64,000 nt of DNA, taken from positions 2,480,001 to 2,544,000 of the forward strand of contig OZ076409.1 of the NCBI GenBank assembly GCA_964187785.1, in the 5' to 3' direction. A program made the translations under genes and the position numbers. Every line of letters begins with the position of its first letter. Position 1 is the stretch's first letter. The notes beneath the pieces were generated by a model. The model had not been told where the DNA came from and did not search any database. It worked only from the letters and a program-made list of their open reading frames with translations. Below, piece by piece: positions 20,199-47,480 of this stretch. Source of the DNA: Amphiscolops sp. MND2022 (Eukaryota).

Positions 20199-20200
20199 CT

Positions 20201-21024: not shown

Positions 21025-21485
21025 TGTTTTTGCTCCTGCGAAGCGTTTAAAATAGATTAGATACTTCTCCTCACCTAATATGGGGTCATATACGCTGTAT
21101 GCACGCTCGCCCTCACCGTCGCATATATATAAATTCTAGGAAAGAATGCCTCTATTTGCAGGCCATGATTATACAAATATATGAAATTTACAAATGATCA
21201 TGATTTCTTTGCATCAGGTGAGTTTTCGTTTTCACAAATTACAGAAACGGGACGATTTTTTGATAAAGTCCAACAGGTTAATCATATCACTATGGCTTCT
21301 TTTTCTTATTAGTTCTTCAAATGACCCAAATTTTATGTGCTCCTTTCTCAAGTTATTGTAAAAACTGCAGTAAAAATATAAAATGCGCAGACGTCTCCTC
21401 GTGATTGCAGATACAGAGTGGTGACGATGTTCTTGATAATTGGTATTGAAAGTCTCGTAGATTGCATTGGTTTGTGAGCATCTCA

Positions 21486-24400
21486 TGTAACGTCCGGCTA
21501 GCGGCGCTCATCTAGGAAAAGGGAAAATGCCTAGGGTGCTTAAACAGGAGACCGTTGTCTTAATACATCCCTAGACACTAGTTTTTCTTCCCAAAATGGT
21601 CTCCTAGGGGGACTTTTCTATCGTCTAAGGAGTCTTCTCTAGTTAGAGCTCCGAAGCGACGCGCCGGCACTCTCAAAGTCCGGACACGCCCCACAAGCCT
21701 GTAAAAACGAATCCTAGGTTCCTAATGCGTTCCTACGAGTTCCTACATGCCTCCGAGGTCAAAACAGTGATTAGCTGGAAAACATCTTATTTGGCAAATG
21801 AGATATAAAAGGACCTAGAAGGGCAAACATCTTTCAAATACCAAAGGGGAAATATGGGGATAACAAAGAAAAACGGGGATAAGCCCCAGTTACTTTACAG
21901 TTTTCAAGCCATCGTTCGAAATACGTCTCTGGCAACCCTCATCGGATGTTGTTGACTTCCACAGGAGATGGCACAACACTCCGATAGTCGCTGTTTTGAT
22001 ATTTCTCGATCTTCTTGCATTCTTTCATCATTCTCAGCATTTTTTCTAGCACGTGCTCCATTTCTTGCTCGCTCTCCGCGTGTTCTCTCTTTTCTTTCAC
22101 GCCTTTTGTACCTGCTAGATCGGCCATCTTTCTTCTTCTATTTTGACATCGCACATTTCGAATTTTTCATCGAAATTTTGGTCATGCCGGTGGCAGACGT
22201 TACATCCTCCCCGGGCCGTAGTTTGTCGTCCTCGGCAAACGAGAGGATGGTAATACCCAGAGTCTGATAGCAATGCTGAGAGTTTTCCGAACACCTTGGG
22301 AAGGTTTCATTTTTTTACTTGTTTTTTTTTAATCTCCAAATTTCCCTTTTATTTCCTCGCATTAATGTCAGTCAGTCTTACGATAACTTAAGAATTTACT
22401 CGACAAAACTAAAAGCGTGGCAGACGATTTCAAAAATTACATGTAATTCCACGAACTTAAGTTAAAATCTTTTTCTCTAGAAGGTGCTCTGGCACTTCTC
22501 TGAGTAACAAAATTCGGGTCTTGGTAACAATGGTCAATTGTTGAGTTAGGGAGTGTGGGAACTGGCTCAGGGCCCACACGCACAGCATAGTTCAACTAAA
22601 ATTCTAAGCATGTAACAAGTATTGTTCAGGAACTCAGTGTTTTACCACCAACAAAAATGAAATGATCTAGGACCATTAGGATAAAGTTGTGTTCATTTAA
22701 GGGCAAGTCCTGGTGTTCACTTAATGGACGAGTCGGCATCAGTAGCTGCTCTTTCACTCATCGTTTTGGCTTTGTTGCGAGTCCGAAACGGATGAAGTCA
22801 CTGTGGACTGCTGATTTGTTGACGATTCCGCCACCAAGGGAGGATATTGCATTGACTCGTCGATGGTGAGCAAATTTTTCAACTCTGATTCAAAATCGGC
22901 AGCGTCCATTTGCGATATTCCCGTCTCGGGTTCATCTTGGGTAGGTGTCGCGCTGTCGGACAGAATGAAGTTATCGTCCGTCATGGGTTCATCATGGGTT
23001 TCCGCGGCGATGGATGAATTCTCCTGGTCTTCTTCCATTCGAGTTTCAGTTCCTTCCGAGGATAACCCACGGGGTATTGTTTGCTGTGACCTGCCGGGGG
23101 CAGCCGCATTTGTTGCATTATTTTCTTCGGTGATATTCCCCTGTGGGAAGTCAGGCAGCTTGTCGGCCAATTCTGGGTGGCCGTATTGTATGAATAAATT
23201 TTTGAAGGTCTCAATTCCACGTGCATAGTCTTCGCCAACAGAATCCCCTCGTTCTTTTTGTTTGCTGTGTAGATTCAGGAACATTTCCAGTGCGGCGCGC
23301 GGATTGCTTGGGACATCTGTACTGATTGGCAAGGTTTTTCTATTTGGTTCTTTTGCCACTGAGGGCGTCTTGGCCTTTATGCGCTGGGATGTCTGGTGAA
23401 CAGCTAAGTCCACCAAGTCTGGTTTCGACCAGCATGTTGTTGCTTGTAATATGTTGGATGGGTGTGCGCGGGGATTGGTTCGATTACAATACATCCTTGA
23501 AGCGTCACATACGTAAGGATACCGCAACCCGGTGGGGCTTTCGCCTCGCCTTCTGCCGCCTAATCTCTGGATCACAGTGGCTAAGATCCTTAAGATCACT
23601 TCTGTGCTCCAGTCTGCAAGGGAATGCGCTGCTCCTGTCGCTGGGTTCAGAGGGATATGTAGCCATGCAATTGGGTGGAATTCCATTAGCATCGGGAGGG
23701 CGCATCGCGCACGTGCTCTTATAATAGACGTGAAGTTGTGTTCTACCTGCTTTTTGTCTTTGATGATCGTGTAGGCCATGGGCGGTCGCAGGGAACTGAA
23801 GTTGGCTACTACTCTGCGGTAGGTGGGCTCCTGTTGGATTCCATCTGTTGTTACAAAGTGTAGTATGGAGTAGGTGGGAGTATTCGCTGCCATACGTAAG
23901 ACTTGGGTCGGGTATCTTAGTGCCATGACCGCGCCAAAGACTGGCCAGACAATGGGAGCTATTAGAGGTATTAAGTCCTCTGTTTCCACCAACATGAGAG
24001 TGGCCATTTGTGAGGGAAACAAGAAACCAGGGAGTTGATTAGGTTCTCTGTTGATGGCTGGGTTTTCATCCCGGGGATGCATAATACCTGCCACATTTAC
24101 CCAAGTCGAGTAAATCCACGTGAGGATAGCTTCAATATTCAGTTCTAGTTGTTTCTTCAATCGTAGGGGACCCGCTGGGTCCAAGGCGCCTAGGATTGCT
24201 TGCAGCCAGTTCTTCTGATTTTGCGCATATACCAGGTAGCTAAAGAGCGGTAGGTTCCCTTGTCAAAGATCAGCTTCTGCAAGATGCCTGAGGGTCCTCT
24301 GTAGACTACATGCATGTCGACTGCCATTAAATAGGCCAATATTTCGCTCATGGTGGCTTGTTGCTTTGCCTCTGCGTATAGGCGTACTTGTTGGTTGTCG

Positions 24401-27400
24401 AGGTTGAATTCAGCTTGGACGAAACTAGGGAGCCAGAAGGGGGAGATATTGTAGAGGAGTACAGGGAATGGGATTCGGGGATGTGCCTGGAAGATGGCTT
24501 TTAGTTTGGAAGGTGGCTTGAATTGAGGCTGTTGCGTTGATGGTGGTCCGGTTTCGCTTTTTTGGTAAATTCGGTACCAAAATGCGCATTTTCTTCGGTC
24601 AACATTGCATCTTTTTGGAGGCTCTTAGTTTTGGGAGCACTGCTACGGCGGTTAATGCAACTCTGATAGGGGCATTGAGGGTGCTCTTTACGTGTGGAGG
24701 TTATTTTCAAGTCCTCATATGGGTTGTTTGGGAGTGAAAGGGTGCCGTCTTTTGTTCAATATTCGCAAAATCAGCGAATTTGTCGTCAATTGGCACGTCT
24801 GGGAAGGGTGAAAATCACTTCCCGGGCTCGTAGCGACTTGAAAATTTCACACCGTATACTACACTACCTGAATCGTGGGAAACTGAACGCCGATTGCGCC
24901 AAATTTGACCCTGTGGGTTTCACGGTCTTTTAACAATGTTTACTGAAAATTTGACTATGTCGTGAAATTCACAAAAAGTAGCCAAACTCGCCTTCTAGGC
25001 GTCCTAGCCACCTGAAATTTTGCATGCGAGCGTAACTTTTGCCTACGCCTAAGTAACAGAAAAACACAGCGGCGAGGTGCCTTGATCAATGTCTGGCGTT
25101 ATGAAGTGACAAAACCTTGATGTACCAGAGGTACTAGTTTTTCGGGTCAAAAATCACAAAAATGTCAATTTCTCAGCTTTGGCCAGTAGCCGGCTGCTCA
25201 AATTGCACAAATCGTCGTTATCTAGTGCCGTGCGCACGAAAATGCAAAAATTTTAGTGCTGGGATACCCGCAAGGTATTGCACTATGCTCCACTAAAATT
25301 CAAATTTTTCGACATTTTCACACGATTTTTGAGCAAAAGTGCGGCTAAGATTTCTCAATCACTAGTAATGCAAGCGCTACGAAAATTACACCACTAACGT
25401 AACTTTTTTTGGTCTACGCGATGGTGCAATCCGTTTGAGGCTGCTTCTACTAGGAAGGATTTCGACCTGTGCTGGAAGCACTACTCTATGGTTCCCAAAA
25501 TGTCGCAAAAATAACGCGTTTTCGGCTATTTCTCAGCAACCACTGGTTGGAATCACTCGCGGTTTTCTGCGTTTGTAACGTTGCACTCTATAATAACAGA
25601 AAATGGGCAAGCGAAACCTGGTAGGTTCCAAACAAGGTCTCTCAAAAAATTTTCAAATTGCATTTTTTACACTCTCGGAACAACACTGAAATAACGTGTT
25701 TTCGTCAAGAAATTCTTGTCTGTCAATTCTTGAATGTTTGAGATCAATTCAATAGTATTGTAAGGAAGTGTGACAACTTATTTTGGGGGGTTGGGGTTCG
25801 TTTAGTTATTATTTTTGATGTTGTATCTCTCAGGTCTATGAGGTCCTTTACTCAGGTCTATGTATATCAAAAGAAACAGGTCGTTAAAGTTTCAATTTCT
25901 ATTGGGGATCCTTAAAAAGCAACTTGGCAATAGTATTTCGTACTACCAAGCTAGGGAAAAGGGTTTTTGGGCTAATTTAGAAGCTTGGAAGCTAATCTCC
26001 AATGCTTTGCCCTCGTCAAATTGGGTCAAAATGGCCAAATTTGACGATTTTTCAACAAAAATCGCTGTATTTTTCGCTAATTTTGGGAAAGTGGCCCTGC
26101 GAATTTATTTGTTCCTGGCCCAGGGGGTATATTGGAACGTTTTTCTAGTATTCTCACTGGCCTTACTCTATTTGACAAAATAGTGGCTTTCAAAATTCAA
26201 AATTTTGGTATTTGAGCTATAAATGACGTTATTTTCGATGTTTTCGAGCTCAAATTTTTTTTACAACTAATCGGAATACCCTTTGGGTATTCTTCTCAGT
26301 TAGTTATAGTGGGAATAGGCCTGGAAATATTTTTTTTGGGCCTTTAAATTAAGAAAATGGACGATTTCACCCGTATGACGTGGAGTGTTGCAATTGCAGG
26401 GGCGTGGGAGGAGTAGTCGTGTAGGACGTCGTCACGTCATCACAGCTGGTGGAAACCTTCAGCATTCGTCCTCTCTGTCCCCATACATTGCAATATAGCA
26501 GAAATTAAGCTAGAAAACCCTTTAAAACACGTCCCGGATAGGACGGAACAGCTTTTTTATTAGCTTTTAGTAAGGTAGAAGGGGGTACACTGTTAGAAAC
26601 TGTTAATTTCTCTAAGTAGACCTCAGAAACATGCGGAAAACGCAGGAACAACATTAGAAGAAAGCCCAAAGGGCCAGAAAAAGGGCAAGAAAAATAATCT
26701 AGGACTCTCCCATTAGTTTTCCTAGATCTGGACCCTCCGGGACCGGAAAGCAGAAGTTGCTCCTACTTGTACGCAAAATGAAAAATATCCCTCTGTAGTC
26801 GCCATAAAAACTATTCCAGATGTAACGTCCGGCTAGCGGCGCACATCTAGGGAAAAGGAAAATGCCTAGGGTGCTTAAACAGGAGACCGTTGTCGTAATA
26901 CATCCCTAGACACTAGTTTTTCTTCCCAAAATGGTCTCCTATGGGGACTTTTCTATCGTCTAAGGAGGCTTCTCTAGTTAGAGCTCCGAAGCGACGCGCC
27001 GGCACTCTCAAAGTCCGGGCACGCCCCACAAGCCTGTAAAAAAGTATCCTAGGTTCCTAATGCGTTCCTACGAGTTCCTACATGCCTCCGAGGTCAAAAC
27101 AGTGATTAGCTGGAAAACATCTTATTTGGCAAATGAGATATAAAAGGACCTAGAAGGTCAAACATCTTTCAAATACCAAAGGGGAAATATGGTGATAACA
27201 AAGAAAAACGGGGATAAGCCCCAATTACTTTACAGTTTTCAAGCCATCGTTCAAAATACGTCTCTGGCAATCCTCATCGGATGTTGCTGACTTCCACAGG
27301 AGATGGCACAACACTCCGATAGTCGCTGTTTTGATATTTCTTGATCTTCTTGCATTCTTTCATCATTCTCTGCATTTTTTCTAGCACGTGCTCCATTTCT

Positions 27401-27539
27401 TGCTCGCTCTCCGCGTGTTCTCTCTTTTATTTCACGCCTTTTGTACCTGCTAGGTCGGCCATCTTTTTTCTTCTATTTTGACATCGCACATTTCGAATTT
27501 TTCATCGAAATTTTGGTCATGCCGGTGGCAGACGTTACA
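21486..27539 (-). mobile_element. LTR element A, non-autonomous, 6054 bp
   Basis: 719-bp direct repeats 21486-22204 and 26821-27539 with TGTAAC...GTTACA ends (~20 substitutions by eye); minus-strand PBS 26788-26804 and PPT 22205-22215; TCA/TCA flanks; no gag or pol motifs. Confidence 0.92.
22754..24184 (-). CDS. Orphan ORF inside LTR element A (476 aa; probably extends upstream to ~24500 across a frameshift)
   Basis: Long open frame, sense to the element; hydrophobic/globular N-half and acidic low-complexity C-tail; no recognised motif. Confidence 0.65.
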   Translation of the reverse strand: MDPAGPLRLKKQLELNIEAILTWIYSTWVNVAGIMHPRDENPAINREPNQLPGFLFPSQMATLMLVETEDLIPLIAPIVWPVFGAVMALRYPTQVLRMAANTPTYSILHFVTTDGIQQEPTYRRVVANFSSLRPPMAYTIIKDKKQVEHNFTSIIRARARCALPMLMEFHPIAWLHIPLNPATGAAHSLADWSTEVILRILATVIQRLGGRRRGESPTGLRYPYVCDASRMYCNRTNPRAHPSNILQATTCWSKPDLVDLAVHQTSQRIKAKTPSVAKEPNRKTLPISTDVPSNPRAALEMFLNLHSKQKERGDSVGEDYARGIETFKNLFIQYGHPELADKLPDFPQGNITEENNATNAAAPGRSQQTIPRGLSSEGTETRMEEDQENSSIAAETHDEPMTDDNFILSDSATPTQDEPETGISQMDAADFESELKNLLTIDESMQYPPLVAESSTNQQSTVTSSVSDSQQSQNDE

Positions 27540-28413
27540 TCAATTATCAATTTGGTAGCATGTTTGCTGAAAGATCTTGGTATCGAAGGTTCTGTCGATT
27601 CTATTTGAGGGAATTCTGGCAATATATGTAACGGCAAGCTCTGGTACAGCAATATCAACCGATTTTGCAACTTTGACATGTTCAGAAATTTTGTCAAAAA
27701 TTCTAATCCGATGTGTGACGTGGCACTGAGCATGTGATTGCTCTTTTCGCTGTTTCCACAAAATTGGCAGGTACTTCGACAACAAAGAGCAAGAACGAGC
27801 AAAAACACGGGCGCGCCGCCATGACAGAAGCCAGAGACGGCAAGAACATCCGAAAAAAGACTCTTTTTGAGGTGCTAACACCGGTTTTATCGATTTTCAG
27901 CCTTATGCTACCCTATGTAGCGGAAACCGTAAAAATGAGTCTTTTCGCCTAAAGATCCTTGTTTGGTGCTTGGAGCCCCTGCGCCCCAGCTTTTTAGCTG
28001 TGTGGTTTGCCATATTCGTGCCTGTTTTCATGTATTTTCAGTGATTTTGGCTGTATTCAGTAGCGCTAGCGCTAGTTTAGATCTTATTTCCCAATTTTAG
28101 ATCTTATTCACATGTCACCCTGGAACTAGAAATTTACCTTATTCTTGGCATTGTTTTTATATGCTAGTTAAGCGGTGGTCTTTAGAGAGTCAGAAAGATG
28201 CCCGTTACTATTAGCAATCAAAGACTAGGACCGGTTGGACAGTATTCGTCGAAGCACCCGCGGCCCCGGGACGTATTTCACCCTGGAAGCAAAATGGATC
28301 TGTGGCGATGGGCGCCTGTCCCGAGCGATTCACCCATTCCTGCAGGTTCCTCCACCTCTTTTAACGCGTTAAGTGACCGATCACTGCTTGCCGTTACATG
28401 AGACCTCATTTTT

Positions 28414-28430
28414 TGGCGACCGCAGAGGGA
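28414..28430 (+). other. Primer-binding site, probably for tRNA-Arg
   Basis: TGGCGACCGCAGAGGGA is complementary to a ...GCGGTCGCCA tRNA 3' end as in animal tRNA-Arg(TCG); element A has TGGCGACTACAGAGGGA. Confidence 0.65.
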
Positions 28431-30149
28431 TCGCTTCCGATTACTGCCCTATTATATGGTTTTGAAATTTCCGACCCCCTGGTATTGGACGCCAAGAACG
28501 ATTGGACTCTGGAAGGAGACGTTTACCCAGAGTTTTTCCAAATTATTAGATGTTATGACGTTGTATTTTGGTGTTTTTCTAGTCTTTCGGGGGATTTTTC
28601 CGAATACCTATGGTATGTTTTGATAACAGGTATTTGTTGACAGGTATCGTCTAAAATTGCACGTTCCCATCAGCGGGTACCTTTGTAATGGCTTAGCGAA
28701 CCGCTAGAAAGCCGTTACGCATGTTGTAACAGGTGTTTTACATCTCATTTCAGCGTTTTTGGCTATGTACCAGGTATTCAGTTGATGGATGCCCCACGTT
28801 CCATCTGACCGATAGATGAGCTGAAACGAGTGTTCCCGACTCTCCTTTCCCATTTCCCGTGGAGACGTGCTAGAAGCATGGTTTTTAGTGGAAAGCTAGA
28901 ACAAACACTGACGTTGCCGGCGGTCCAAATTGTTTCTCTTTGGCTGGTCTGGTTGTTGAGAAAAAAGACGGCGAAAGTACCACCCCTCATTCCGCAAGAA
29001 TCGGTTTTTGGAATATGGTATGAAAAAATTTTTAGATTGTGTATTTTTTGACGGGGAATCATTTGTGCATGCTAGTTGTACCCTGTTGCAACTAAGTGTG
29101 TGCTTTTGAACCTGTTTTTAGTGAAAAAAGTGCAATTTTTAGTGCAAAAGTTGCAAAAACGTGATTTTTGGCATTTTTGAGTACTTTTCTTGGTACGAGC
29201 GCGAGCGCTCGAAGTATTAGCCACAGCAGTTGCAAAATGAATAGAAAGCAGCCCAAAACCTTGAGGGTTATGCTACATAATGTAACGACAACCAGAAAGG
29301 CCGTTGGAGACCTTTTTGAGACACATTTTGCATGACAAAACCCGGTTTTTGGCGAAATTGGCAAAAAACCACTATGAAATGACACTGGGAGAGTGCTGGA
29401 TTGTGATATAATTGCCTCTTCCGTGCTGCTATTAGTTTGGGGCACACTCCACAGTACCGAAAACAGGATTAGATTTAAGAGAGCTTGTAACGTTTTCTTG
29501 GTGAGAAGAGGTCGAAAAACCTTGATTTTTGGCCAGTTTCAGGAGTGCCAGAGTGCATAAGTAAAACCTCTGGGGCACTCAGTGTTTTCGAGACCTGGGA
29601 GCCAGCGCGCTCTCATTTTCTGTTTTTGTAGTAAAAGTAACGCATTGTGGTGAAAACCGCGTGTAAAAACTCCCATTCAGTGCTGAGAAAAGTGGAAAAA
29701 CGCACTGAATTTGATCAATTTTCCACAAAACCGGACTGTCTCTGAGCTAGGATCGGGTCATCGATTCCTGAACCCTAGCCAAAAAGTGGTTGAATTTTCG
29801 TAACCACCACAAAAATTAACGTTAGTACCGAAAATTTGGTGAGCGTATCGGTCACCAAAGTCGAGAAAAGCTCTCTGACGTTTCGACTTCAGAGAAGCGT
29901 AAGAGGACCGAAAAAATCCAAAACTGCAGGACTGTCAGTGCCTTATACCCAACGGGCAAAACCAATTGAGGGTTTATTCCAGTGCTACGGATAGTGGGGC
30001 AACACGTTGGTCCCATTTTGCCCGCCGTATCACTTTCTGAGGTGATCCTCTTGGTCAATTTGTGAAAAAAGTCGTCAAAAACACTGTTTTTTTTGTGTAC
30101 AACGTAAATAGTGGGTCGAAACCTCAAATAAGCGCTCGCGCTTCAATTC

Positions 30150-32150
30150 GACCATTTTAGTGGCATTGTAGGTGCCCATTGGCATAAACTACTAAGTTTG
30201 GTGCCGATCTGTGTGATACTTGTTGAGAAAATAGGAAAAACGTGGCACCCAAAAAAGTGCGCAAAAAGGCAGTTTTTTCTTAATTTTTCCAAGTAACCCG
30301 GGCACCTTAGCTGACGGGTGGGGCTATATTGCAGCCCACCATTGTAACCTGTGCTAAGTCCTACGTTGCTGCAGAGAATTTGAGCTTGCTAGCTCCTTCC
30401 AGTGGACCGCAATCTTGAAAAAGACGTGAAAAACAGTGTATTTTGGTACATAGTGGTACCGCACGTCTGTACCTAGGTGAAACTGTGTAGAAGGGGCGCA
30501 GCTCAATTCTGTAATCTTTTTCGTAAACCTACGTGTACCTAAAATCTGCTGGTCAATTGTGGGCTTGATACAGCGCTTCCAGCGTTCACACGAGCCTCTT
30601 GAGTGTTGTGGTGCGATTTTTGGAAAACCCAAAAATTCTTTGAAATTCTTCCTGTGGGTGACTGGAGACTTTTTGCCCTAGACCAGGTTGAGTTTCTGGC
30701 CCAGTGTGCTTGTGGGAAAGCGCTGTGCAAATTTGAACAGCCTACGAGGCTTAGAACGTGTTTTGAAAAATCTTGGACGTTGAAAAAAAATCAATTTTCT
30801 TAAGTCCTCACTGAGACGAGCAGAGGTCCAAATCCTTGAGAAGACCCCCTGCAAGCCTACCACCGTCTATTTTACTACTCTAACAGCGTGATTGGTGCCT
30901 ATTGACAGCGTCTGCCAAGTTTGGTGTCAATTGCTACTATATCTGTTGAGAAATTGACTAAAACAAACTGAACAAGAAGGTGCGCAAGAAGGCGAATTCT
31001 ACGAAGTCTTCTGGGATTGCCTGAACACCTTATTCAAAGAGTGGGGCCAAATTGCTGCCCACCATCGTAACCAGTGCAAGTTTATCGTATTGTTGCCGAA
31101 AAAACGAGCGTGAGCGTTCTTTGCAGTTCGCCACAATCTGGGTTGACACGTGAAGAACAGTGCATATTGGAACACAGTGATATCGAACGTCGTTACTGTG
31201 TTGAATTTTCACCTAGTCACCTCAGCACAAATCAGCTATCACTCCCTTGTACCTCAACTTACGTGGGATTGTTTGGTTGATTTTGAAGTCGATCCTGCGT
31301 TTCCAGCGTTAGCGCTAGCCTCGAGTTTTTTTTTCTAGTGAAGCTGAAAAACCCAAAAAATATCTGGAAAACCTCTGACCTGTGACTGGATCGTAATACC
31401 CCGATTCTGGACTCAATTATTGGGTCAGTGCATCAATCCGGAAATGCTGTTTACCTTCCAGCACGTTACAACCCTTGGAACTAGTTTTGACTCTTCTTGG
31501 ACGTGCATATTCATTGTATCAGTTTAAGGTTTCACCGAGACGAAAACTGGGAAAGTGAGGAAAAAGTCATTTCTACGTGTTGGAAACCTGTGGAAACCCC
31601 TAGTTTGAACTCCCAGTAGTTCGTTCATTGCTGTGCGTGTGATATTTGATCAGTATCGAGTGGGCTGCCTTGCTGGATCATAGCATTTTGTTACTTGAAG
31701 TTGTGATATCCTGTGTATTGTAACGAATTGGATCATTTTTTGGAACTCTCGGCGCACCTTATTGGAAGTTGGGATTACATTGCCCTGGACTATTCTTATA
31801 AGTGTCATTTGGTGCACCGTTGCTGAAAAAGTGAGCTCGAGAGCTCAGCACTGTGGACGAGAGTCTTTGATTGCATGTGAAAAATCGTGTCAATCGAGAC
31901 ACGGTGATACGGAACGTCAGTATCAGATCTAAATCTTGCCCAGTGGTCTGAATTCTCATTGGTTGTTACTGTAGTGTAGCTGGCTATACGTGTGATCGCG
32001 TGACCAATTTTGAGCCCGATACCACGTTTCCAGCACTTGTAAAAGCCATTTGAGTGATTTTCGAAAACAGTTGAAAAATCCAAAAATCGTTGAAAAAGGC
32101 TCTAGCTTGGAGCTGGAGGCAATCATCAGCTACGGTAGGTTATTTTTCTG
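30150..32150 (+). repeat. Three diverged ~725-bp tandem units in the leader of element B
   Basis: CACCTTA anchors near 30303, 31026 and 31754, each followed by similar blocks; the ORF track shows matching peptides (TDVRYHYVP / NDVRYHCVP / TDVPYHRVS). Confidence 0.7.
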
Positions 32151-32928: not shown

Positions 32929-34404
32929 TTGCTAGAAATTCTCTTGACTTGGACCCTGACACTGAACTTGGGTACACAGGTTGTTCTAGTGATGCAGTTC
33001 GGAACCTCTAAAGCTAAAATTAAACATGGGAAAATCTCCCGCCGCCTCCGTTCCTTTTTTCAAGGGGGAAGGAGTGTCAGTGCAGCACAACCAATGGATG
33101 TTCATGATGTTCAACCTCAAAATGAATCCCAAATGGTAGATGAACATGACCGATCGACGAAGTTAGATGATTTGAACGTGAAAGATTGGCCTTTGGAGGA
33201 TAGTTTCAAACCTGTCTCCAATTTTCTAGACTCAATGCCATCTAACTCTCAGGATACCGAGCCGGAGAGGAGCATAAGGACTCCCAGTCCTTGTTCAGTA
33301 TCGTCGTCGAAAAGATCTCTCCATGAAACCAGTATTCAGATTTATCAGAAACAGGACCAACAATTAAAGGCCCTGGAGCAGCAGATGGATGAGATGTCAA
33401 TCTTTTTGGCACAAGGCACACTTCGCAGGGAGAAACTGCTAGCACAAATGCAGTCGATAAATGCAGAAGTACAGGCACAACTCACAAATGCCGATATCAA
33501 TGTTTCAAACGACGTCAAATCAGAACCATTGACACCGCCAACAAAAGACATCGGCGTGGACCCAATATCTTTGGACACTACAACCATGGGTATTGCTGAC
33601 ACTTTGCCTGAATATCGCGCCGGTGATAATGGGTTGCGCGAGCGCAACTTCTACTCAAGTGATACGAAGAATGAACGAATATCTATCTCATCCTCCATTT
33701 CCTTATCGCAGGATTCTTTAAGCAACTCTCACTTCCCTGGAACAAAGTCCCTATTATCAACTACGAAGTTGCTACCGAGTTTGCTGAAAGACTCTTTTGA
33801 GCCACATTCTGCTACATCTAACGCTGGAATGAAACCTTCGGAAAAATTCCAACGCCTCTGCTTCCTTTTGAAGGGGGGAGAGGGCACCAGCGCAGCACAA
33901 CCAATCGATGAACCGGCCTCGATATCTTCGAACAACGCAACCATGGGCATGGCTCACACGTCGCCTATGGATCGAGGCGGGTTGCTCGAGGACAATCATG
34001 GTACTGATGACCCAAAAGACGAATTGATATCTCCCAAACAGTTGAAATTCACGGAGAGGATTTCCAAAACTATAGCTAAAGAGTTGGCTCCCTTGATTGC
34101 CAATCGTGATCAAACCGCTGTTCGACCAACCTTATACAGAGGTTCGAAAGACGGGACTGTTGAAGAGTGGTTGCTCGTGATGAAACGGTATTTGAAGCGA
34201 GTTTTTTCGAATGCTTCACCTGTCGACAAAGTCTGGGCGATAATCGATCACTTAGGTGATGAAGCTCGGAGTTTTATAATCAACAAACCGGAGTCCGAAT
34301 GGGATTCTCACGAGAAGGTGACTACCTTGCTCTCCAGCAGATTTGGGACTGGGAGTAACCGCAGGCTTTCAGGTTGCGAAGTCAACTTGAAAGAGAGGAC
34401 CTGA
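32929..34404 (+). CDS. gag: Gag-like N-terminal part of the element B polyprotein
   Basis: Coiled-coil stretch, then capsid-like YRGSKDGTVEEWLLVMKRYL...LGDEARSF...W...LSSRFG; continues in the next frame (QAFRLRSQ..EDLMQYLDAL). Confidence 0.8.
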   Translation: MLEILLTWTLTLNLGTQVVLVMQFGTSKAKIKHGKISRRLRSFFQGGRSVSAAQPMDVHDVQPQNESQMVDEHDRSTKLDDLNVKDWPLEDSFKPVSNFLDSMPSNSQDTEPERSIRTPSPCSVSSSKRSLHETSIQIYQKQDQQLKALEQQMDEMSIFLAQGTLRREKLLAQMQSINAEVQAQLTNADINVSNDVKSEPLTPPTKDIGVDPISLDTTTMGIADTLPEYRAGDNGLRERNFYSSDTKNERISISSSISLSQDSLSNSHFPGTKSLLSTTKLLPSLLKDSFEPHSATSNAGMKPSEKFQRLCFLLKGGEGTSAAQPIDEPASISSNNATMGMAHTSPMDRGGLLEDNHGTDDPKDELISPKQLKFTERISKTIAKELAPLIANRDQTAVRPTLYRGSKDGTVEEWLLVMKRYLKRVFSNASPVDKVWAIIDHLGDEARSFIINKPESEWDSHEKVTTLLSSRFGTGSNRRLSGCEVNLKERT

Positions 34405-37400
34405 TGCAGTATCTAGATGCACTAGAGGGTCTGAGGAGTCAGGGTTTTCCTGATGAGCCTATCACTACCCGACGCTATGAAATCTTGCATCGGTTCATGG
34501 ACGGGGTCAGCGATCCCGTGTTGCAACGAGAACTGACGGTGGTAGTTGCGACAGAGGCGCATTTAGCCGACCCACCTACCGTGGAGTCACTTCGGTTCAC
34601 AGTACAGGAACTCCAAAGGAGTCGTCACCAACAACAGCCTCGTGACCCAGGGTGCACCGACACTGTACCTTACCAGTGTCTACAGAGCGACCAAGTGCCG
34701 GGGTCACCAATGGCTCCGCAGCATGGATCGCTGCCACCCCTTGCACGCCGGTCGGCACGATTGCCGATGCCGCCTGCGTCTGTACACACAACCCCCGAAT
34801 ACAGACAGACCGCAACCTTAGAGCAATCCGCGCGCTGCTTGCAGAGTGCTTGCGCGAGACGCAAGCTGGTGGTGCATCGCCCGGAGCATATTCTTGACCC
34901 ACATAGTGAGTCCCAGCAAGGTGCTGCAGCAGCGGTTCCAGCGCCTGCTGTCCCAGTGAAATCGTGCACAACTGAGGTGTCTGCAGGTTGTCCAACATTA
35001 TCAATCCAGTCAGAAACTTCCAGCCCTAGGACTGAAGAAAAGAAGAAAACGGATGCAACGCAAACACTGTCTACTGCCTCTGGCAGGGTATTAATGCTAC
35101 GCCCAGCTGACCAAGCCACCGTAAATGCTCCATTGACTGTCACCTGTGGCACAAAGCAGGTGCAGACAGGTTTGGAGTCCACAACGTTTGACCCTAGTGA
35201 CCGGACTTTATTGTCTGTACACCTAGTGCTGGCCTCGGAGCAACAAATACGCCCAGATTTGACTTTGGAAAAATTGAAGCTGGAGTTAGCTAGCAATTCG
35301 GCTGTCAAAAAGATCTCCTTACCACTGCCAAAAGAATGGTATACTGAAGGCGAAGCTAGTACGTGCACGGCATACACCCCAGTTCCTGTGCATGCCAACA
35401 TAGATGGCGTGGACATGAAATTTGATGGTAGCGTGGTAGTAGATGTGTTCCCTCAAGGAGTGTGCCTAGGGCCACATGAATTACGCTGCTATAGCATCAG
35501 CAAGCAAGAGCCCACAGGTGAGGCCCGCATAGATGAGCGTGCGTCGCTCGTGGTATCTTTCGCAGTGCAAAATGCTAACCCTATTCCACTGAGAGGAATG
35601 GTCGACACGGGGTCAGGCGTATCAATCATGAGTTTCTCAGCCTTCAACCGTGTAGCCTTGCGGACAGGTGTAGCGCTACAACCTTATCGAATCGACTTGT
35701 ATGCTGCTAATGGGAAGACGATAAAAACGCTTGGAATAGCGGAGCGCGTGCGCTTCCAACTTGGTGGATATGAACTCGAAACAAATTTCGTGGTCGTTGA
35801 TGACGCACATGGCTTGGAAGATTTCTTGCTGGGTAGGAATTTTCTGCGAGCATACAACGTGCTGGTAGATCTGACCTCCATGAAAATAGTGGTGCGAGCC
35901 CCGGCTAAGCCCGTGTGGCATCACGCACACGCCCAGACGAGCGATGAAACTTTATCTAGTACAGTAATTTTGGATCAAGACGTGGTGCTACAGCCATTCG
36001 AGCGTGCTGTTCTACGTGCCAAGGTGGTCACTTCGAACTTGGAAGCTTTTGCTTTCAGTAATGTTGTGATTAACTTTGCAACACCGAACCGATTGCTGAA
36101 GAACACTATATTCGTGGAAGACACTATAGCCACTGTTGGAGAGACAGGTTCGTTCTATGTCTCTGTTGGCAATCTGACAAGCAATGCCCAGAAAGTGAAG
36201 TGCGGCACCATGTTTGGTACTGATGCGCCAGTACGCCTAGTCTACCATGCAGTTCCCCAATGCGCGCTAGCGCACAAAGGCAAAAATGACGAAAAATTGG
36301 ATTTCCCAAATGAGTTTGTCAACAGGGTCTACTCTGAAATGGACCTGAACTCGCATTCAAAGTGTTCGTCGTCGTCGGAGTTCGAGTTTCTCTCCTCTAC
36401 AGACCCATCGGAGGAGGGGTTGTCAGAGCGCGAGATCAGAAAACGGACTGACCCTGATCTCTTGGCCCCTATTCCTGGACCCGAATCTCAGTTAGAGGAG
36501 GTACAAAAGTTGTGGGGGAAGACTGCCCGCGACTCGCTGAACAACATCCTTACGGAATTTGATGACCTATTCAAAGCAGACATTGGTCGCTGCACAATAG
36601 CCAAGCATCCTGTTGAGTTGGAGCCTGGGGCTACACCGCACCGTGAAGGCGCGAGAAGAATGTCGCCTGACAAGGCGGAGCGCGCCAATCAAGAAGTACG
36701 CAATCTCTTGGCTTTGGGCATGATCCAACCTTCGCTATCACCTTGGGCGAGTGGAATTGTGATGGTAAAAAATAAAAATGGGGAGTTGCGATTCTGCTGC
36801 GACTTTCGCCCCCTCAACGCTGTCACAATAAAGGACGCGTATCCCCTCCCACGCATCGATGAAAACCTTTCACGCTTGGGTAAGGCCAAGATTTACACTA
36901 GCATTGATTTGGCCTGGGCTTTCTGGCAGATACCAGTCCGCAAAGCAGATAGGCAGAAAACGGCCTTTGCTTGCGAGCTGGGTTTGTTTGAATGGAGACG
37001 TATGCCTTTTGGGATGTGTAACGCTTCAGCTACTTTCCAGCGAGCCATAGCGCGAGCGCTACGGAAAATTGTGAACCGGGAAGGAAGCATGGTGATGGCG
37101 TACATTGGCGACATCGTCATTGCTACCGAGACAGTCGAGGACCACATGGTACGCTTACGCGAGGTATTTGAATGTCTGCGCGAAGCTGGCTTCAAAATGA
37201 GAGTCGCTAAGTGCGACTTTATGAAGTCGGAAATCAAGTACCTGGGACGTGTGGTCTCTGCCGAAGGTATCAAACCTGATCCTAAAGCAGTGGCAAAACT
37301 ACGCGATTGGGAAGTACCGAGGAACAAAACAGAAATGCAAAGCTTTTTGGGCTTCGCTAACTATTATCGAGAGTTCATTCCTTGGCATGCCAAACTTGTG

Positions 37401-38630
37401 GCCCCCTTGCATGCTATTACCGGCCTGGGCGTGATTTTCGCCTGGGGGAATGAGCAGCAACAGGTTTTCAACGCCGTCAAATTGGCTTTGATCGAGGCAA
37501 CTGCCTTGGCGCAACCGGACTCGGAGGACGAATTTGTGCTGGACACTAATGCCAGTGCTGTTGCAATTTCCGGCATTTTGCATCAGTGGCAGGGTCCTCC
37601 GGGCGAAAGGCGCCTGAGACCAATTGTGTATGGTAGCAAGAAGTTGAATGCCACTCAAGCGAATTATGGCGCTCCCAAGCTTGAAATGTACGCAGCTTAT
37701 TATTTCATCTTGAAGAATCACAGTTATCTCTGCTCCAGAAAGTTCATCCTTCGGGTTGACAATCAAGCTCTCTCTTGGCTCAAAACGTATTCCACTGATC
37801 AGGCCTTGATTGGACGATGGATTATGGCATTCGAGAAGTACCATTTCAAAGTGGAGCATCGTCCCAGGACACAGCATAGGAATGCCAATGGCCTCAGTAA
37901 ACGAACCAATGATTATCGATGGCGAGAGAAGCAGCTCGAGAAGCTGCCAGTTGTGACGGACAAATGGAATTTCCTCTCACAGGAGGAGTTTGACCAGCTG
38001 CCCGTTGCACCTTGGTTCGATTTGCATGGTCGGGTGATACCCAATCACCCCCAATTGCCCGCTCACTTGCGGAACACTAAACCAGACCCCACAAATGCAG
38101 TTTGTCGTGTTGCACGACGACGTAAGCGCCGTCAGGCCGCTGAGAAGAGGGAGAGTGCGCTACGCGCTCCTCTACCTGAGGCACTAGTGCCTACATTGCA
38201 AACTCACGAAGACTTCTATCCAGATTATCATGAGGACTGGATTGACGTCACTGAAGAGGCTAGGCAAGATTACTTGCTGCCTACACATGTGGCAAATATC
38301 CCCTCACGCATGACATATGCCCTTGACGAAACAGTGGAGCAAGCCGTGGCTTCCGCTCCAACGGTGGTTAGGCAAGCTGCCCTAGCCATCAAAGACATAG
38401 ACACGGAACTTCATGAACATGCCAACACGGTGCATGGCATCAAGGATCTGCTTTTGGCACAGAATCGTGATGTGCATGTGCTAGCCATAATGAAGTTGGT
38501 AGCACAAGAGTCTATTGATCATGACATTTTTCCTGAAGACGTGCGTGCGTTCGCGCGTAACTATTACAAGCAGAAAAAAGATCTCCTGTTTAAAAAAAAA
38601 AACAAAAATGGAATTTTTTGTGTAGGGTAA
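34374..38630 (+). pseudogene. pol: Gag C-terminus, protease, RT and RNase H of element B, with catalytic substitutions
   Basis: PR VDTGSG...FLLGRNFL; RT SPWASGIV, LRFCCDFRPLN, YPLPRID, MPFGMCNA, YIGD (expected YIDD); RH DTNAS and NANGLS (expected Asp in both). Confidence 0.93.
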
Positions 38631-39720
38631 CCACCTCAGCAACGTCCATTGCACGAACGTCCGTGCATGATTGTAATGCCACAATTGTACCAGCATGAAA
38701 TTTTGTTTCGTGCTCATGATGCCATGGGCCACCAAGGCATTACAAAGGTGGTTTCGCGAATCCAAGAACGCCACACCTGGCCAGGTATTCGCCGCAGCGT
38801 TGGTCAGTACGTGAGTCAGTGCCTCACGTGCCAGCAAGTACGTGACAGGCCGGGTGACGTTCGGTTTCACTTGAAAAATATCCAAAGTGGGTACTTCAAT
38901 GAGCTGGTCCAGTATGACCATCTGAAAATATGCCCCTCCGATAACAATAACACCGGCATATTGGTGGTAATTGACCATTTCTCCAAGTGTACCCTGCAGC
39001 CATTAGGATTACGATGCAGTGGCCACGTCTAGGTTGCTTTTGCAGAAATGGTTTGCCAGACACGGCACGCCTACGCGGATGCAGTCAGATAATGCCCCCA
39101 ACTTGACTGCAGAGGTATCCAATGAGTTCATGAGGGCATCTCAGGTCACAAAAGTTACCTCTAAGGCGGGACATCCGCGCACCCAAGGCCTGGTTGAACG
39201 ACAAAATCGGACTTTGCTGACTTTGTTGGGGGTATTTTGCTCGCGTCGCATGAGAGATTGGGACCAGCATTTGGATGAAGTCATGGGAGCGCATAACTCA
39301 ACGCGCCATGCTACGACTGGGTTTTTACCCTACATGCTGACCCGAGGGACCGAAAAGGCTATTCCTCTCACCTACCTGTATCCGGAGTTCGCAGCCAGAT
39401 CATTTGAATCTGTCTGTCCATATTTGAATCTGTCCATATGTGGAGCATATTCTTGCTCGCCAGCAAGAGATTCATGACTTGGTGCGTAGAAACACGCATC
39501 AGGCGCAACAACGTCAAAAGCTAAAATATGATCGAGCTATTCGTGCAAACGCATACAATGTGGGAGACCCCGTTTGGGTATTCTGCCGCTATGTACCTCA
39601 AAAAGGATCACCGAAGTTGATGAGAGCTTGGCGTGGTCCGCACAAGGTTGTCCATGTACTACAAGATGGCCGCGTCTAAATCCTGGACTCAGGACAAAAA
39701 GTGCACTTTGAGCGGCTGAA
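38631..39720 (+). pseudogene. Integrase of element B (frameshifted)
   Basis: HHCC (HDAMGH...CLTC), DDE (YDH, SDNA, GLVER), GPY/F-like WRGPHKV...VHFERLK; stop at 39677 and several indels. Confidence 0.92.
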
Positions 39721-42054
39721 AACTCAACCTGGTGGCCCTACGGAGTTTGTTGCGCTTCCCTCGGGGAGTGGCGAAGTGGTTGTTGTCATGGATCCTGAGC
39801 CTGAGCACTCTGCTGAGGAGATCCCAGACGACTGCTCACAACCCTCATATCGCGAGGAAGAACCGCTCTCTGAAGCATCAGATGTATTGCTACCATCAAG
39901 GAGACGCCACTGGATGGACACCAGGTTGCGTACTAGAATGCGAGCTGGAGGCAGTCGTCTCCACTATCAGCAATTTGACTATTCCAGTTCCGACTCAGAG
40001 CGTTCGCGCTCTGACGACTTGCTGTCAGATGCCCGAGATCATTCCCAGGAGGAACCTCCGGCGCTATTCGAAGCTTCAATGCCTCTCGATGAACAACCTC
40101 GGTCATTTGAACCTGAAGTTATTCTCGGTCATTTGAAGTTATTCCGGAAGTACCTCAATCGCAAGATATTCCCGTTGCAACTGGAGAAGCCGAAGTATCA
40201 CTAGCGGGTACATCTGCTCCTCTGTTGACAAATCCTACATTGACGGATGTGCCTATTAGTATTCCTCAATTGCCGAATGGTACCTCCAACCTCCAAAACA
40301 CTGAAACCCGTAACACCGAGTTATCCAACACCAACGAGCCAACTGCTCGGAACAATGTCCCTAGCACGCGTGGCAGGGGCAGATCGCAAGCTGCTTTATC
40401 TCGTTGTTCGACACGAGCAACAAAGTCCCGGTCGCAGAACGTGAGCGTGCGCGCTCAAAGGACTCCCAGTCGCAGAGGACGTCCTCGAGGACGACCTCCT
40501 CGGAGGCCACGAGGACACACTATTTCTTCACGGCAAACAGCTCGTGAAAATGACACACAGCCATCAATTACATCCGATTCTGACTCTGATGCGCCCACCG
40601 CGCAGCTTACATCCGATGTTGACCAAGGCGCAACGCAGGTTAACCCACACTATGGCTTACGCCGGAATCGAGTACCTCGATATCGATGTGGAACCTGTGG
40701 GTTCCGCGATTGCACTTGTGTCATGGCTCTGAACAAATCGCCCACTATCCCACTTGGACCTGTGAAAGCTCCGGTGGATCCAAAGCCTCAACCTTTTATC
40801 CACAATGGTAAGCTTCTTGTCAGTCGCGTTGTCATCCGCGCAGAGAAGACATACACCGGTCTAGAACGAGAACGTATCTTCCCTGTAGACGTCGTGCTGG
40901 AAGAATTATCTAAATCCAAGATTGCTGAGGAACCTTGTCCTCGCTTCAAAGAGTGGACCAGCGATCTCCGCGGATTGGAATTCACACTTGCCGTCACAGT
41001 GCCTCCTGTCACTCCTAACATTGTATTTGGACCTTTCAATTATGAGAGGGAACCCATCCAAATGGTCCGCTGTATCACCGCTGACCTCCTATCTGACAAA
41101 TACGGCATCACCTGTCAGCCTGGTGAAGTGTATCGCCCAGCCCAATATTGGTGGTTGCTTGTAACTGCCCCACATGCTCACTCTTTGGTCCAGCCTGACA
41201 GCTTGCGGAGCTGTCTAAAGAGTTTGCGGACTGTTGTCTTTGAGGAACTCATTTTGTGCTTCCACATCGTTGATCTTTATCGTGGAAAACTACGGTTCCG
41301 ATTGTGGCTAGAGCTGATTATCACTTTGTTCGCCAGCTTCCTTCGTATCCGCCTTTTGGATGATTGGACCCATTCCTTCACCGAGCCTGTAACGATCCAC
41401 ACTGCACTTGGTACCCTGGATTCATGGTCAACAGCAAATGTGGATAATCAGTCTCTGTCGAGGTCCGTATGGCAGGATCTATCTGCTATTCGTGGACAGA
41501 ACCATATAGACCCAGCTGATGAAAAAGGTCCCGGACGTCAGATTGTGTTTCCTGGTGCCCTACGACCAAATTTGATCGACTACATTGTTTACGACCAAAC
41601 TGATTTCTTGCAGGTGCAGGGCCACGTAGCAATTTGCTGCCCTGCAGACCTTAATACCAATTCTGCTGCCTTGCGCTACATTCTTCGCGAGTGTGGCAGC
41701 GACAAAATATTCCAACTTCGCCCACCAGTTGGTGAAGTCCTAACTCTCCCATCCTCATTGTCTTTTATAGATAGTCAGGTTCTTCACCTAATGATAACAC
41801 GCCCCTCCCAGCGTTCACCACAAATCACCGATGACTTTTTCTTATGCTTGGAGCACTTGAAAGCTTCATTATTGTCCAACGAAACCCCTGATATTCATTT
41901 CCCCATAGTGGACCCTGAACGCCCACTTCGCAGTTTGGACAATTTTTTTCATAGTGTCATGGACGTTTTTGCAGGAACTGATATCACTGTATTTCTGCAT
42001 GATCGCGTCTATGTCTCCATTGCCAGTTTTGAACAATTTCCTGGCATCACTTAG
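39701..42054 (+). CDS. C-terminal extension of element B Pol: acidic linker, AT-hook-like RGRP motifs, Cys cluster, two TARG1-like macrodomain segments
   Basis: ORFs 39701-40204 and 40225-42054 join in frame when the 20-bp duplication 40124-40143 is removed; by-eye alignment to OARD1/TARG1. Confidence 0.7.
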
Positions 42055-45000
42055 CTTCAACGTAAAAGTTTCTATTTGCTATCCTGATATCTCATGCTAA
42101 ATACGCGTTGCTGGTTACCTTGTGGTAGCGTGCGTTGAAATCCATTGCCAGAACCACACTCCACTTCTTTTCAAGGGGGAAGGGGTGTCTTCAACGCCCA
42201 ATTCATCCTCTAGCATTTTCTTTGCATTTTTTGTTAGTCATTGCTATCTTATTATTAATGAAGGTGCTCAACTATCAAAGCCCGGGGAGCCCCACTGCAA
42301 TAAAAAAACCCAAAAACTCTCCATGTATTGCTACGCCCGAAAGGTGCTATTTTTGTTTTTTTTTCAAGACTTCCAGAAGTTTCCTCCAGATTCCAATGTG
42401 ATATCCGGAGAAATAAGGAGCGCGCGCGCTCCTGATCTGCAAATGGTCACTTTTGATCTACCTTTGTCTGCTTTACTCCAGTGCTTACTCTTACGAGCAG
42501 TTCGTAGTTTGCTTCTGATGCGCTCCTTGACAGATGCTACTGAACTCTATACAGGTATGGAGCTGCACATCAGTGCGTGTTGCCCAAACCAATCCGAACT
42601 GTAAAAAATAAAGTATCAAAGAAACAGCTTGTCTTCCTTTTAAACAGTGGTTTTACTGCTGAAAAGAACTTTTAGCGAAAAGAACTTTTAACCGTGCTGC
42701 AAACCGAAATTTTATTGCCGTGGAAAAGATGTTTTTCATGAGAACCACGTGCGCTTTGGAGCGTGAGCGCTCCGCAAAAAAAAGTTTAGACGTCCAAAAA
42801 CCAAAGTGCTAGCAGGATCCCATTCAGACTTTTGCAGAAAACTCGTGCTAAAAAAGTGGTGCTTTTTTGATTGATGTATGGAATCTTGGATTTGATCAAT
42901 TTCAAGGTGCATTTTTGAGTACTGGTTTTCTAGCTCTCGAGCTAGCTCTGTTTCAACAGTTTGTGGACGATGCAGGTTCTCTGGATGGCAAGAAGCAAGA
43001 CCTCATGGTTGCCCAATCAGCAAAAGATGACAGTGCCACTGGACCGTTGCAACATCACCAGTTTGAGATCCCCGTGGATTGCACTCATGATGTGGCGATG
43101 TGTTCAATGCCAGCTTCTCCGCATGACAGGGACGTCATGCATAAAGCCCGGGGAGTGATGTAACGGCAAGCTCTGGTACAGCAATATCAACCGATTTTGC
43201 TACTTTGACATGTTCAGAAATTTTGTCAAAAATTCTAATCCGATGTGTGACGTGGCACTGAGCATGTGATTGCTCTTTTAGCTGTTTCCACGAAATTGGC
43301 AGGTACTTCGACAACAACGAGCAAGAACGAGCAAAAACACGGGCGCGCCGCCACAACAAAAGCCAGAGACGGCAAGAACATCCGAAAATAGACTCTTTTT
43401 GAGGTGCTAACACCGGTTTTATCGATTTTCAGCATTATGCTACCCTATGTAGCGGAAACCGTAAAAATGAGTCTTTTCGCCTAAAGATCCTTGTTTAGTG
43501 CTTGGAACCCCTGCGCCCCAGCTTTTTAGCTGTGTGGTTTGCCATATTCGTGCCTGTTTTCATGTATTTTCAGTGATTTTGGCTGTATTCAGTAGCGCTA
43601 GCGCTAGTTTAGATCTTATTTCCCAATTTTAGATCTTATTCACATGTCACCCTGGAACTGGAAATTTACCTTATTCTTGGCATTGTTTTTATATGCTAGT
43701 TAAGCGGTGGTCTTTAGAGAGTCAGAAAGATGCCCGTTACTATTAGCAATCAAAGACTAGGACCGGTTGGACAGTATTCGTCGAAGCACACGCGGCCCCG
43801 GGACGTATTTCACCCTGGAGGCAAAATGGATCTGTGGCGATGGGCGCCTGTCCCGAGCGATTCGCCCCTTCCTGCAGGTTCCTCCACCTCTGTTAACGCG
43901 TTAAGCGACCGATAACTGCTTGCCGTTACAATATTTCTCAATCGGCGATTCCATAATTCGATTCTATAGTGTTCACAGATTCGTTTTTAGTATTTTTCAC
44001 CCAGTGCGATACCTGAAAATCTTGCAAAACCTCGGAGGCTGGATTGTAGTGACCTCCATACTTTGCTATCGGAGTCTGATAAGGCTCTTGAACACTGGTC
44101 AGAGTCAAAACCGTTTTTATGGGCAAATTTAGCTTGTCATAATTGAATCTCAAGATCGATTGGAAATTGACTACATATGTATTCCATTTTGGTGAGCTCG
44201 TGTTTGTATTTGGTATTTGAAGATTTCGATAATATCTTGTACCATAAGCTGCTTGTTCTGAATGCAGTGGGATTGGCCCAAATATGACTCAAGTATGTCC
44301 ACACGGGGATCACCACGCAATTCATAAGTTTCAAAATGGTGGAAGGCGTGATGAATTGATTCTGTACAAGAGGTTCCAAAACTCCCATGGCTTTTTCTGC
44401 TTTTCTTGAACATTTCCCGAATTGTGCTCGAGAATTCAAATTGTTATCGATTGTGATACCGAGCGCTGTTGACTCTGTCGCGAACTTTATTGTGTCTCCT
44501 TGCAACACTATATTTTTTGTAGGTTCTCGGATTTCTTCACGGATACTTGAAAAGATGACAACTTCTGTTTTCGGCCCCGAGATTTTAAGACGCCACTTTC
44601 CAACCCATTTTGTAATTTCTTCGCAATCTTTTTGATTATGCGACAGAGCTTCTTCTATCGAGTCAGCTGCTGAAACATGTGTGGCGTCGTCAGCGTACTT
44701 TTCAAATTTACCTTTGAATTCTTGGAACATTTCTGCAAGGTAAAAGATAAATAAGATTGGGGAGAGAATGCTTCCTTGAGGGAGGCCAACTTCTAGCTTG
44801 AAGCTTTCTGATCGGTTCTCGCCTATTTCGATGTAAACGTTTCTGTTTCGGAGATAATGGTCAATGATGTTCAAAATGTAGCTGTTTATTCCTGCTTCAC
44901 GCAGTTTATACATGAGACCGTCAATCCAAATCGAGTCGAATGCTTTCTCGAGGTCGATGAAAAGGGCAGCCGCAACTTTTCCTTGCTCAATAATATTTTG

Positions 45001-47425: not shown

Positions 47426-47480
47426 ACCGTCGCAAAGACCAGCTCCCACTACGATCGCTTCGCTATCTCCGTTCCCGCTA

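Follow-up and report, generated by a model that had tools for sequence, protein, structure and literature searches.

Back-to-back LTR retrotransposons with 3-bp target-site duplications in Amphiscolops sp. MND2022, one of them probably a sister-family copy with an internal deletion

Introduction

In long terminal repeat (LTR) retrotransposons of the Ty3/Gypsy type (Metaviridae), protease (PR), reverse transcriptase (RT), RNase H (RH) and integrase (IN) follow the order PR-RT-RH-IN, the LTRs have TG..CA ends and are accompanied by a primer-binding site (PBS) and a polypurine tract (PPT), and gag carries a CX2CX4HX4C knuckle. Two LTR elements, A on the minus strand and B on the plus strand, lie back to back in the window analysed here, a 64,000-nucleotide stretch of Amphiscolops sp. 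MND2022 (contig OZ076409.1, positions 2,480,001 to 2,544,000; coordinates below are those of the window). The initial annotation had read them as a possible two-component system, in which B-type enzymes mobilise A, a satellite that would bring along a cargo protein of its own. The present analysis indicates that A is probably not the partner of B but a member of a sister family that has lost its internal part, and that the signals common to both were likely inherited.

The LTR termini, PBS and PPT of the Ty3/Gypsy type recur in A and B, the gene order recurs in B, and the gag knuckle recurs in relatives of B and of two further pol groups, C and D. However, the target-site duplication (TSD) of Ty3/Gypsy elements typically measures 4–6 bp (PMC12440569), whereas A and B have 3 bp in two of two insertions; because this misses the Gypsy norm, they are filed as a Gypsy-type variant. 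Troyka, the one exception among LTR retrotransposons to the 4–6-bp duplications, possesses 3-bp TSDs, CG..CG ends, LTRs of 100–400 bp and a CX2CX8-10HX4C knuckle, without GPY/F (PMC12440569). The 3-bp TSD, a single gag-pol frame with PR-RT-RH-IN, an animal host and internally deleted derivatives are found in both, but the LTRs of A and B are TG..CA and 719–772 bp long, the pol set contains 92 CX2CX4HX4C and 0 CX2CX8-10HX4C knuckles, and a WRGP(H/F) motif is present here. Membership in Troyka was rejected on LTR termini, LTR size and gag knuckle; PMC11673190 adds nothing decisive. In a literature search, beyond whose reach lay most subscription journals and Repbase, no LTR group other than Troyka came up with TSDs of 3 bp, nor did anything relevant on long PBS spacers in LTR elements.

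Other described systems resemble parts of the locus. The bdelloid Vesta elements are Gypsy elements with a GDSL/SGNH third open reading frame (ORF3); the non-autonomous TelKA2n keeps env, and derivatives losing gag-pol but keeping ORF3 have been described (PMC5408684). As in Vesta, the third ORF of the A-family would stand behind pol, with a GDSL neighbour in one distant homologue (record P0355). Compared with Vesta-like elements, the ORF3 of the A-family (1,340–1,430 amino acids, aa) has no Pfam, PDB or Atlas match, and the TSD is 3 bp, the PBS offset 15–16 nt and a macrodomain is fused to the integrase. In wheat, RLG_Cereba and RLG_Quinta form an autonomous/non-autonomous pair with an identical PBS and a conserved LTR half (PMC11302176). 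LTR termini and PPT are likewise common to A and B, and the short element is likewise protein-coding; in contrast, the PBSs agree at 16/18 positions, the LTR bodies are not conserved, the ORF of A is a truncated remnant, and several pol families are candidate helpers. Macrodomain ORFs are also borne by fish endogenous retroviruses (PMC4977317), but here the macrodomain is TARG1-like, in frame at the integrase C-terminus, and found in the B and C groups.

Architecture and end signals

Self-alignment of the window returned two LTR pairs, delimiting A (21486–27539, minus strand) and B (27627–43930, plus strand). The 5′ LTRs are adjacent and divergent, with a gap of 87 bp between the elements, as first annotated. 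The LTRs of A differ at 20 of 719 positions and those of B at 19 of 772 (Kimura two-parameter distances of 0.028 and 0.025), which bears out the similar divergences counted earlier by eye. TGTAAC..GTTACA stands at the termini of all four LTRs, the terminal 6 bp being identical between A and B, and both PPTs contain GCCCGGGGAG; these ends and the PPT core agree with the earlier description.

The PBS-like 18-mers, called nearly the same in the initial annotation, are identical at 16 of 18 positions, and both could pair with one tRNA, with one G:U pair each. The PBS presumably resembles the end of an arginine tRNA. The PBS offset, said to be the same, is long in both elements and near-equal without being identical, 16 nt in A and 15 nt in B. 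The LTR bodies had been described as unrelated; their best local score of 31 lies within the shuffle maximum of 32, but a weak trace of similarity exists in the first 250 nt only (z 4.5). Folding of the LTR–PBS junctions was no better than that of shuffles (z −1.4 and −1.1), and an Rfam search of 21000–44200 gave no match.

Element A carries a truncated ORF3

Element A holds both LTRs, the PBS, a 2.35-kb leader, the last ~570 codons of ORF3 and the PPT. Its ORF corresponds to the last ~40% of a 1,340–1,430-aa protein: the full-length relatives P0555 (1,387 aa) and P0563 (1,343 aa) are 96–97% identical to it, and the match begins at their residue 852–857, the first ~856 residues being gone. Homology to ORF3 ends abruptly at 24474, and a frameshift is located near 24256. 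The truncation point is crossed continuously by 114 of 264 family proteins, and the upstream residues are present in 8 of the 15 closest relatives. A search of the A leader against 628 proteins, including full gag-pols, found no gag-pol or gag remnant (0 matches at E 0.5). Because the ORF is truncated and frameshifted and the leader upstream lacks gag-pol, the supposed orphan cargo is a remnant, belonging to a family that behaves as the ORF3 of pol elements. What stands of the satellite claim is that A as it is encodes no enzymes and has in common with B the cis signals that B-type enzymes would require.

The leaders of A and B are collinear homologues over ~1.7 kb from the LTR, with matching offsets in 6 of 11 alignment windows (z 2.4–14.9). 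The best block pairs A 25351–25704 with B 29513–29868, at offsets of 1116–1470 and 1114–1470, respectively, and scores 73 against a shuffle maximum of 48. Such collinearity points to common descent as the likely source of the common end signals. The pattern is likely that of sister families, in which termini, PBS, PPT and leader have been kept while the LTR interior has turned over.

The ORF of A is unrelated to the B tail (best E 0.12). P0566, which has 4 mismatches in 539 aa, was considered as another copy of the shortened element and set aside; it is too close for the age of the LTRs, and is more likely the same A insertion on another haplotype.

The ORF3 family and its pol partners

The ORF of A has 86 relatives among 3,016 candidates, and a set of 5,636 yielded five long ones of 1,277–1,429 aa, whose clusters contain 118, 342, 172, 51 and 3 members. 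In each of the five ORF3 clusters checked, 2 to 8 of the 15 members listed measure at least 1,270 aa. ORF3 has no match in Pfam, PDB sequences or Atlas, the fold of its core is poorly predicted (predicted local distance difference test, pLDDT, 32), and no ORF3-family loci turned up in the metagenome and prokaryote collections scanned. Profiles gave no support for an SGNH/GDSL fold in A-type ORF3, in which the motif was looked for by eye and of which the SGNH region is deleted in A.

Several records join ORF3 to pol. In P0081, an RT is fused in frame to an A-type ORF; this RT is 71% identical to that of B and 80–88% to the separate C pol group, with which it sits in a tree made up of relatives only, at weak clade support (0.16). 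In the D-group records P0355 and P0402, pol is fused to a distant homologue of the A ORF, and P0493, which continues this ORF, is 19–24% identical to the A ORF (E to 1.7e-14). Pure ORF3 pieces also lie within 90% clusters of pol, P0406 in one and P0493 and P0485 in another. In P0355, a GDSL domain shares one frame with the homologue of the A ORF3 (Pfam E 8.8e-7, 30 bits, cut-off 32.9). The D-group ORF3 (P0355, P0493, P0485) exceeds 2,200 aa and consists of the GDSL domain followed by the domain common with the A ORF3; the D pol clusters have 2,300–3,000 members each.

Co-occurrence on contigs, scored as contigs of equal size against a sample of 228 ORF3 contigs, was found for 14 of the 61 contigs with C pol and for 5 of the 61 with B pol, where 3.7 each were expected (P 3e-5 and 0.31, respectively). 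The P0306 pol and the P0057 cluster share 3 of 14 contigs (0.06 expected), one of them only 17.7 kb long, and the P0303 pol shares 2 contigs with the P0239 cluster (0.05 expected). Before counting, P0391 (a crayfish chromosome) and P0493 and P0485 (ORF3 in a pol cluster) were left out, and P0406 was counted with ORF3 instead. The D pol group did not serve as a control, since its 0 common contigs against 4.7 expected suggest another assembly. Taken with the fusions, these counts indicate that the ORF3 family is likely the third ORF of autonomous pol-bearing elements, in which it would follow gag-pol within one element. An autonomous parent with A-type LTRs, part of what the initial annotation had named as refuting its reading, is supported in this way only indirectly.

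Target site of the two insertions

Both A and B interrupt one decayed minus-strand ORF2 of a long interspersed nuclear element (LINE). The TSDs read TCA/TCA for A (plus strand) and ATA/ATA for B, and two such 3-bp matches have a chance probability of p ~3e-4 at the local base composition. The reading frame of the host provides a further measure of their length. The LINE RT frame (Pfam RVT_1) runs for 327 codons up to B with 2 stops, compared with 13 and 21 in the other frames. Among the 49 pairs of duplication lengths tried, 3+3 bp is the only one that makes the duplications exact for both elements without adding a stop or breaking the frame, which then reaches a C-terminal Cys/His motif beyond A; the motif was recognised by eye, and a Pfam search of it gave no match. 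A 5-bp TSD for B fits with one mismatch but was rejected by the same test, since with 4 or 5 bp assumed for B, stops appear in every case in which the frame arrives at the Cys/His motif. Only 3+3 keeps the frame, so the TSDs are 3 bp long, as first annotated, on the evidence of two insertions, both at 3 bp. A and B are flanked by separate TSDs, and the stretch of target that divides them is undamaged and keeps the frame; therefore, they entered one old LINE as two separate integration events, 84 bp apart.

Under random placement, 0.03–1.2 A–B pairs within 87 bp are expected per genome for the assumed copy numbers and genome sizes. One such close pair is uncommon, yet unremarkable after a reader's selection, and the 84-bp distance of the target sites is attributed to chance or to a shared local target preference. 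Among sequencing runs, one contained a small share of the sequence and no RNA run was listed; its eight contigs represent parts of both LTRs and the LTR–PBS junction of A; none of them bridges the spacer or the join in A.

Element B and its integrase tail

In element B, Pfam searches of its frames and of relatives place protease, RT, RNase H and integrase in this order. Relatives 90–96% identical to B (P0459, P0462) have a single frame of at least 2,770 aa from gag to the end, whereas in the window copy this frame is interrupted by four frameshifts and by several stops, and the catalytic motif of RT is mutated, so it is no helper today; B is autonomous in type only. The gag knuckle CX2CX4HX4C, matched 92 times in B, C and D group relatives and by Pfam zf-CCHC in P0429, was not seen in the window copy. 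The integrase core is followed by WRGPH in the B and C groups and by WRGPF in D, and a match to Pfam p58_C (the GPY/F module) was not found.

What had appeared as a separate 3′ ORF of B is the integrase tail. Its final domain, predicted with a mean pLDDT of 79, aligns with TARG1 (Foldseek E 1.4e-8; Z 15.0, root-mean-square deviation 3.8, 144 residues aligned), and the model thus has the macro fold of a TARG1/OARD1-like macrodomain. The tail also occurs in pols of the B85 and C groups. The glycine-rich loop of TARG1, part of its active site, has no counterpart in the alignment, and enzymatic activity of the B macrodomain appears doubtful. The N-terminal beta-rich part of the tail received no assignment by structure comparison. 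A second, degenerate macro-like domain is perhaps present at tail residues ~97–213 (tail at window 40723–42054); PARP14 macro 1-2 aligned over 97–430, and aminopeptidase N-domains gave Z 6–7.

Approximately three diverged ~720-bp repeats, roughly at 30120–32300, make the B leader longer than that of A. The 1.1-kb 3′ untranslated region (UTR) of B matched no ORF3-family member among the 628 proteins, which leaves B without ORF3; the internal PPT core in this region lies 866 bp upstream of the real PPT, and may be a scar left when ORF3 was lost, or a second point from which the plus strand starts. Between protease and RT, at ~35900–36300, a dUTPase-like insert was seen by eye, and a D-group relative gives a weak herpesvirus dUTPase-family match at this position (E 0.033). 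In P0458, a B-type pol fragment, the last 40 residues match the B 5′ leader, which suggests a rearranged copy.

Origin of element A and alternative explanations

The preferred reading, that A is a deletion derivative of a sister family, would start from a parent of ~20 kb with gag-pol followed by an ORF3 of ~1,350 residues. One deletion, before or after insertion, would have removed the part from the leader into ORF3. A and B would be primed by one tRNA, and their integrases would cut the target with a 3-bp stagger and trim a 15–16-nt overhang off the U5 end; the trimming is what the standard scheme of reverse transcription entails, provided that the PBS is real.

Several points weigh against this account. 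The parent with A-type LTRs is inferred, and the A–B adjacency is not fully explained by random placement. Equal contig size stands in for identity of the contig and does not place two genes in one element, and its background comes from 6 collisions in 22,620 unrelated pairs. The subfamily of A itself shares 0 of 11 contigs with either pol sample, which is uninformative at 0.18 expected each, and its pol link is extrapolated from other subfamilies. In addition, the sister subfamily of A (~88% identical) shares contigs with B-clade pols. Its P0075 cluster is found with B-clade pol on 4 of 14 contigs (0.23 expected; picked post hoc from 13 clusters), and the subfamily with a P0290-type B-clade pol on 3 contigs (0.17 expected; P 7e-4, chosen after the fact), where its ORF copies are distinct and 93–94% alike. 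The same sister subfamily also occurs with C pol on 3 contigs (0.55 expected). The ORF3 and pol trees do not simply match, and the pol–ORF3 fusions could have arisen by template switching between co-packaged RNAs. Either ORF3 moved between pol lineages, in which case the parent of A may be a sister family within the B clade, or there are ORF3 elements that accompany others and lack pol; a transfer fits the strong leader homology of A and B.

The second of these options, in which the family of A is an old, pol-less, ORF3-only partner mobilised by the B clade and perhaps supplying ORF3 to B-type elements, the window copy being further deleted, is unlikely, although it draws on the absence of ORF3 from B, on the termini, PBS, offset and PPT common to both elements, on the occurrence of the sister subfamily with both B-clade and C pol, and on the missing pol link of A's own subfamily. 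However, three records show pol fused in frame to ORF3 and two clusters of pol include ORF3 pieces, the pairing with pol is subfamily-specific down to a 17.7-kb contig, and neither an identical PBS nor a conserved LTR half, as in Cereba/Quinta (PMC11302176), is found here; the window copy of A cannot supply a whole ORF3. The helper/accessory partnership of the initial annotation is likewise unlikely, although the above-chance contig sharing of the sister subfamily with B-clade pol leans towards it. A broader scheme of a bipartite retrotransposon joins a Gypsy lineage with 3-bp TSDs and a 15–16-nt offset to a circulating ORF3 and to pol-less elements that pair with and insert beside B-type ones. 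Its first half, a 3-bp-stagger lineage with a long PBS offset, is highly probable, and the scheme as a whole is improbable.

A reverse-transcribed spliced RNA of the parent, with the leader joined to a cryptic acceptor in ORF3 and integration in trans, would account for a join that cleanly removes all gag-pol and lies in the leader, likely less than ~800 nt from the gag start, and the ORF3s of LTR elements typically come from spliced messages (PMC5408684). This origin is very unlikely: the join falls ~856 codons inside ORF3, not ahead of its start, and was not seen again in 264 proteins, a weak test as no in-frame Met lies upstream. Co-integration of A and B by one event or complex, the coupled integration first proposed, is the remotest prospect, since the 87-bp distance, the LTR divergences equal within error and the low random expectation at the low end of the assumed copy numbers are met by a separate TSD for each element in an intact, in-frame target, by the ~22% counting error that ~20 differences leave on each age, so that equal age shows no simultaneity, and by the absence of any common contig for the autonomous B and C families in 3,721 pairs.

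Features of the locus and its surroundings

Table 1. Coordinates of elements A and B and of their host LINE in the window
Feature	Position	Strand	Basis
A TSD, left copy (other copy 27540–27542)	21483..21485		sequence and LINE frame test
C-terminal end of host LINE frame, Cys/His motif by eye	21356..21485	-	
A 3′ LTR, 719 bp	21486..22204	-	self-alignment
A polypurine tract	22205..22216	-	sequence
A ORF3 3′ remnant	22754..24474	-	protein comparison
A 5′ leader, 2.35 kb	24475..26820	-	protein search and leader alignment
A PBS-like 18-mer, 16 nt from LTR	26787..26804	-	sequence
A 5′ LTR	26821..27539	-	self-alignment
87-bp spacer, piece of host LINE ORF2 with one TSD copy of each element	27540..27626	-	
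B 5′ LTR, 772 bp	27627..28398	+	self-alignment
B PBS-like 18-mer, 15 nt from LTR	28414..28431	+	sequence
B 5′ leader, 4.6 kb	28399..32991	+	
B gag-pol (gag, protease, RT, RNase H, integrase, C-terminal tail)	32992..42054	+	
TARG1/OARD1-like macrodomain (predicted), end of B integrase tail	41515..42012	+	structure comparison
Second, internal PPT core in B 3′ UTR	42280..42289	+	
B polypurine tract	43146..43158	+	sequence
B 3′ LTR	43159..43930	+	self-alignment
B TSD, right copy (other copy 27624–27626)	43931..43933		sequence and LINE frame test
Host LINE ORF2 remnant (RT domain and downstream), upstream part of target	43931..44913	-	Pfam, frame test

Beyond B, a tandem array occupies 44183–64000; it starts 253 bp past B and takes in part of the LINE hosting both elements. 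Its units of ~5,042 bp, one of them cut to 3,450 bp, are 97–99% alike and contain a LINE endonuclease ORF, a hairpin-like inverted-repeat element and 35-bp repeats. On the opposite side of A and B, a 550-bp piece (20106–20652) matches the end of this repeated unit at 96.6% identity. Exons recognised by eye at 1604–1897 and 19414–20279 (minus strand) are ribosomal protein L23-like and ArfGAP (SMAP-type)-like, respectively, and A lies ~1.2 kb from the latter.

Implications

For the most part, the notion of a two-component system gives way to a known pattern, in which a derivative shortened by deletion lies beside a relative. What is unusual in the clade is the combination of 3-bp TSDs, a long PBS offset, an integrase macrodomain and a large ORF3 without family match. 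Gypsy-type elements with TG..CA ends and 3-bp TSDs confirmed by a host reading frame make the integration chemistry of this clade notable, and a PBS placed 15–16 nt from the LTR predicts an unusual trimming of the ends. Element finders that require 4–6-bp TSDs would miss these high-copy elements. The TARG1-like macrodomain fused to the integrase and the ORF3 of 1,350 aa, which is abundant and often full-length, are candidates for a role in counter-defence or targeting.

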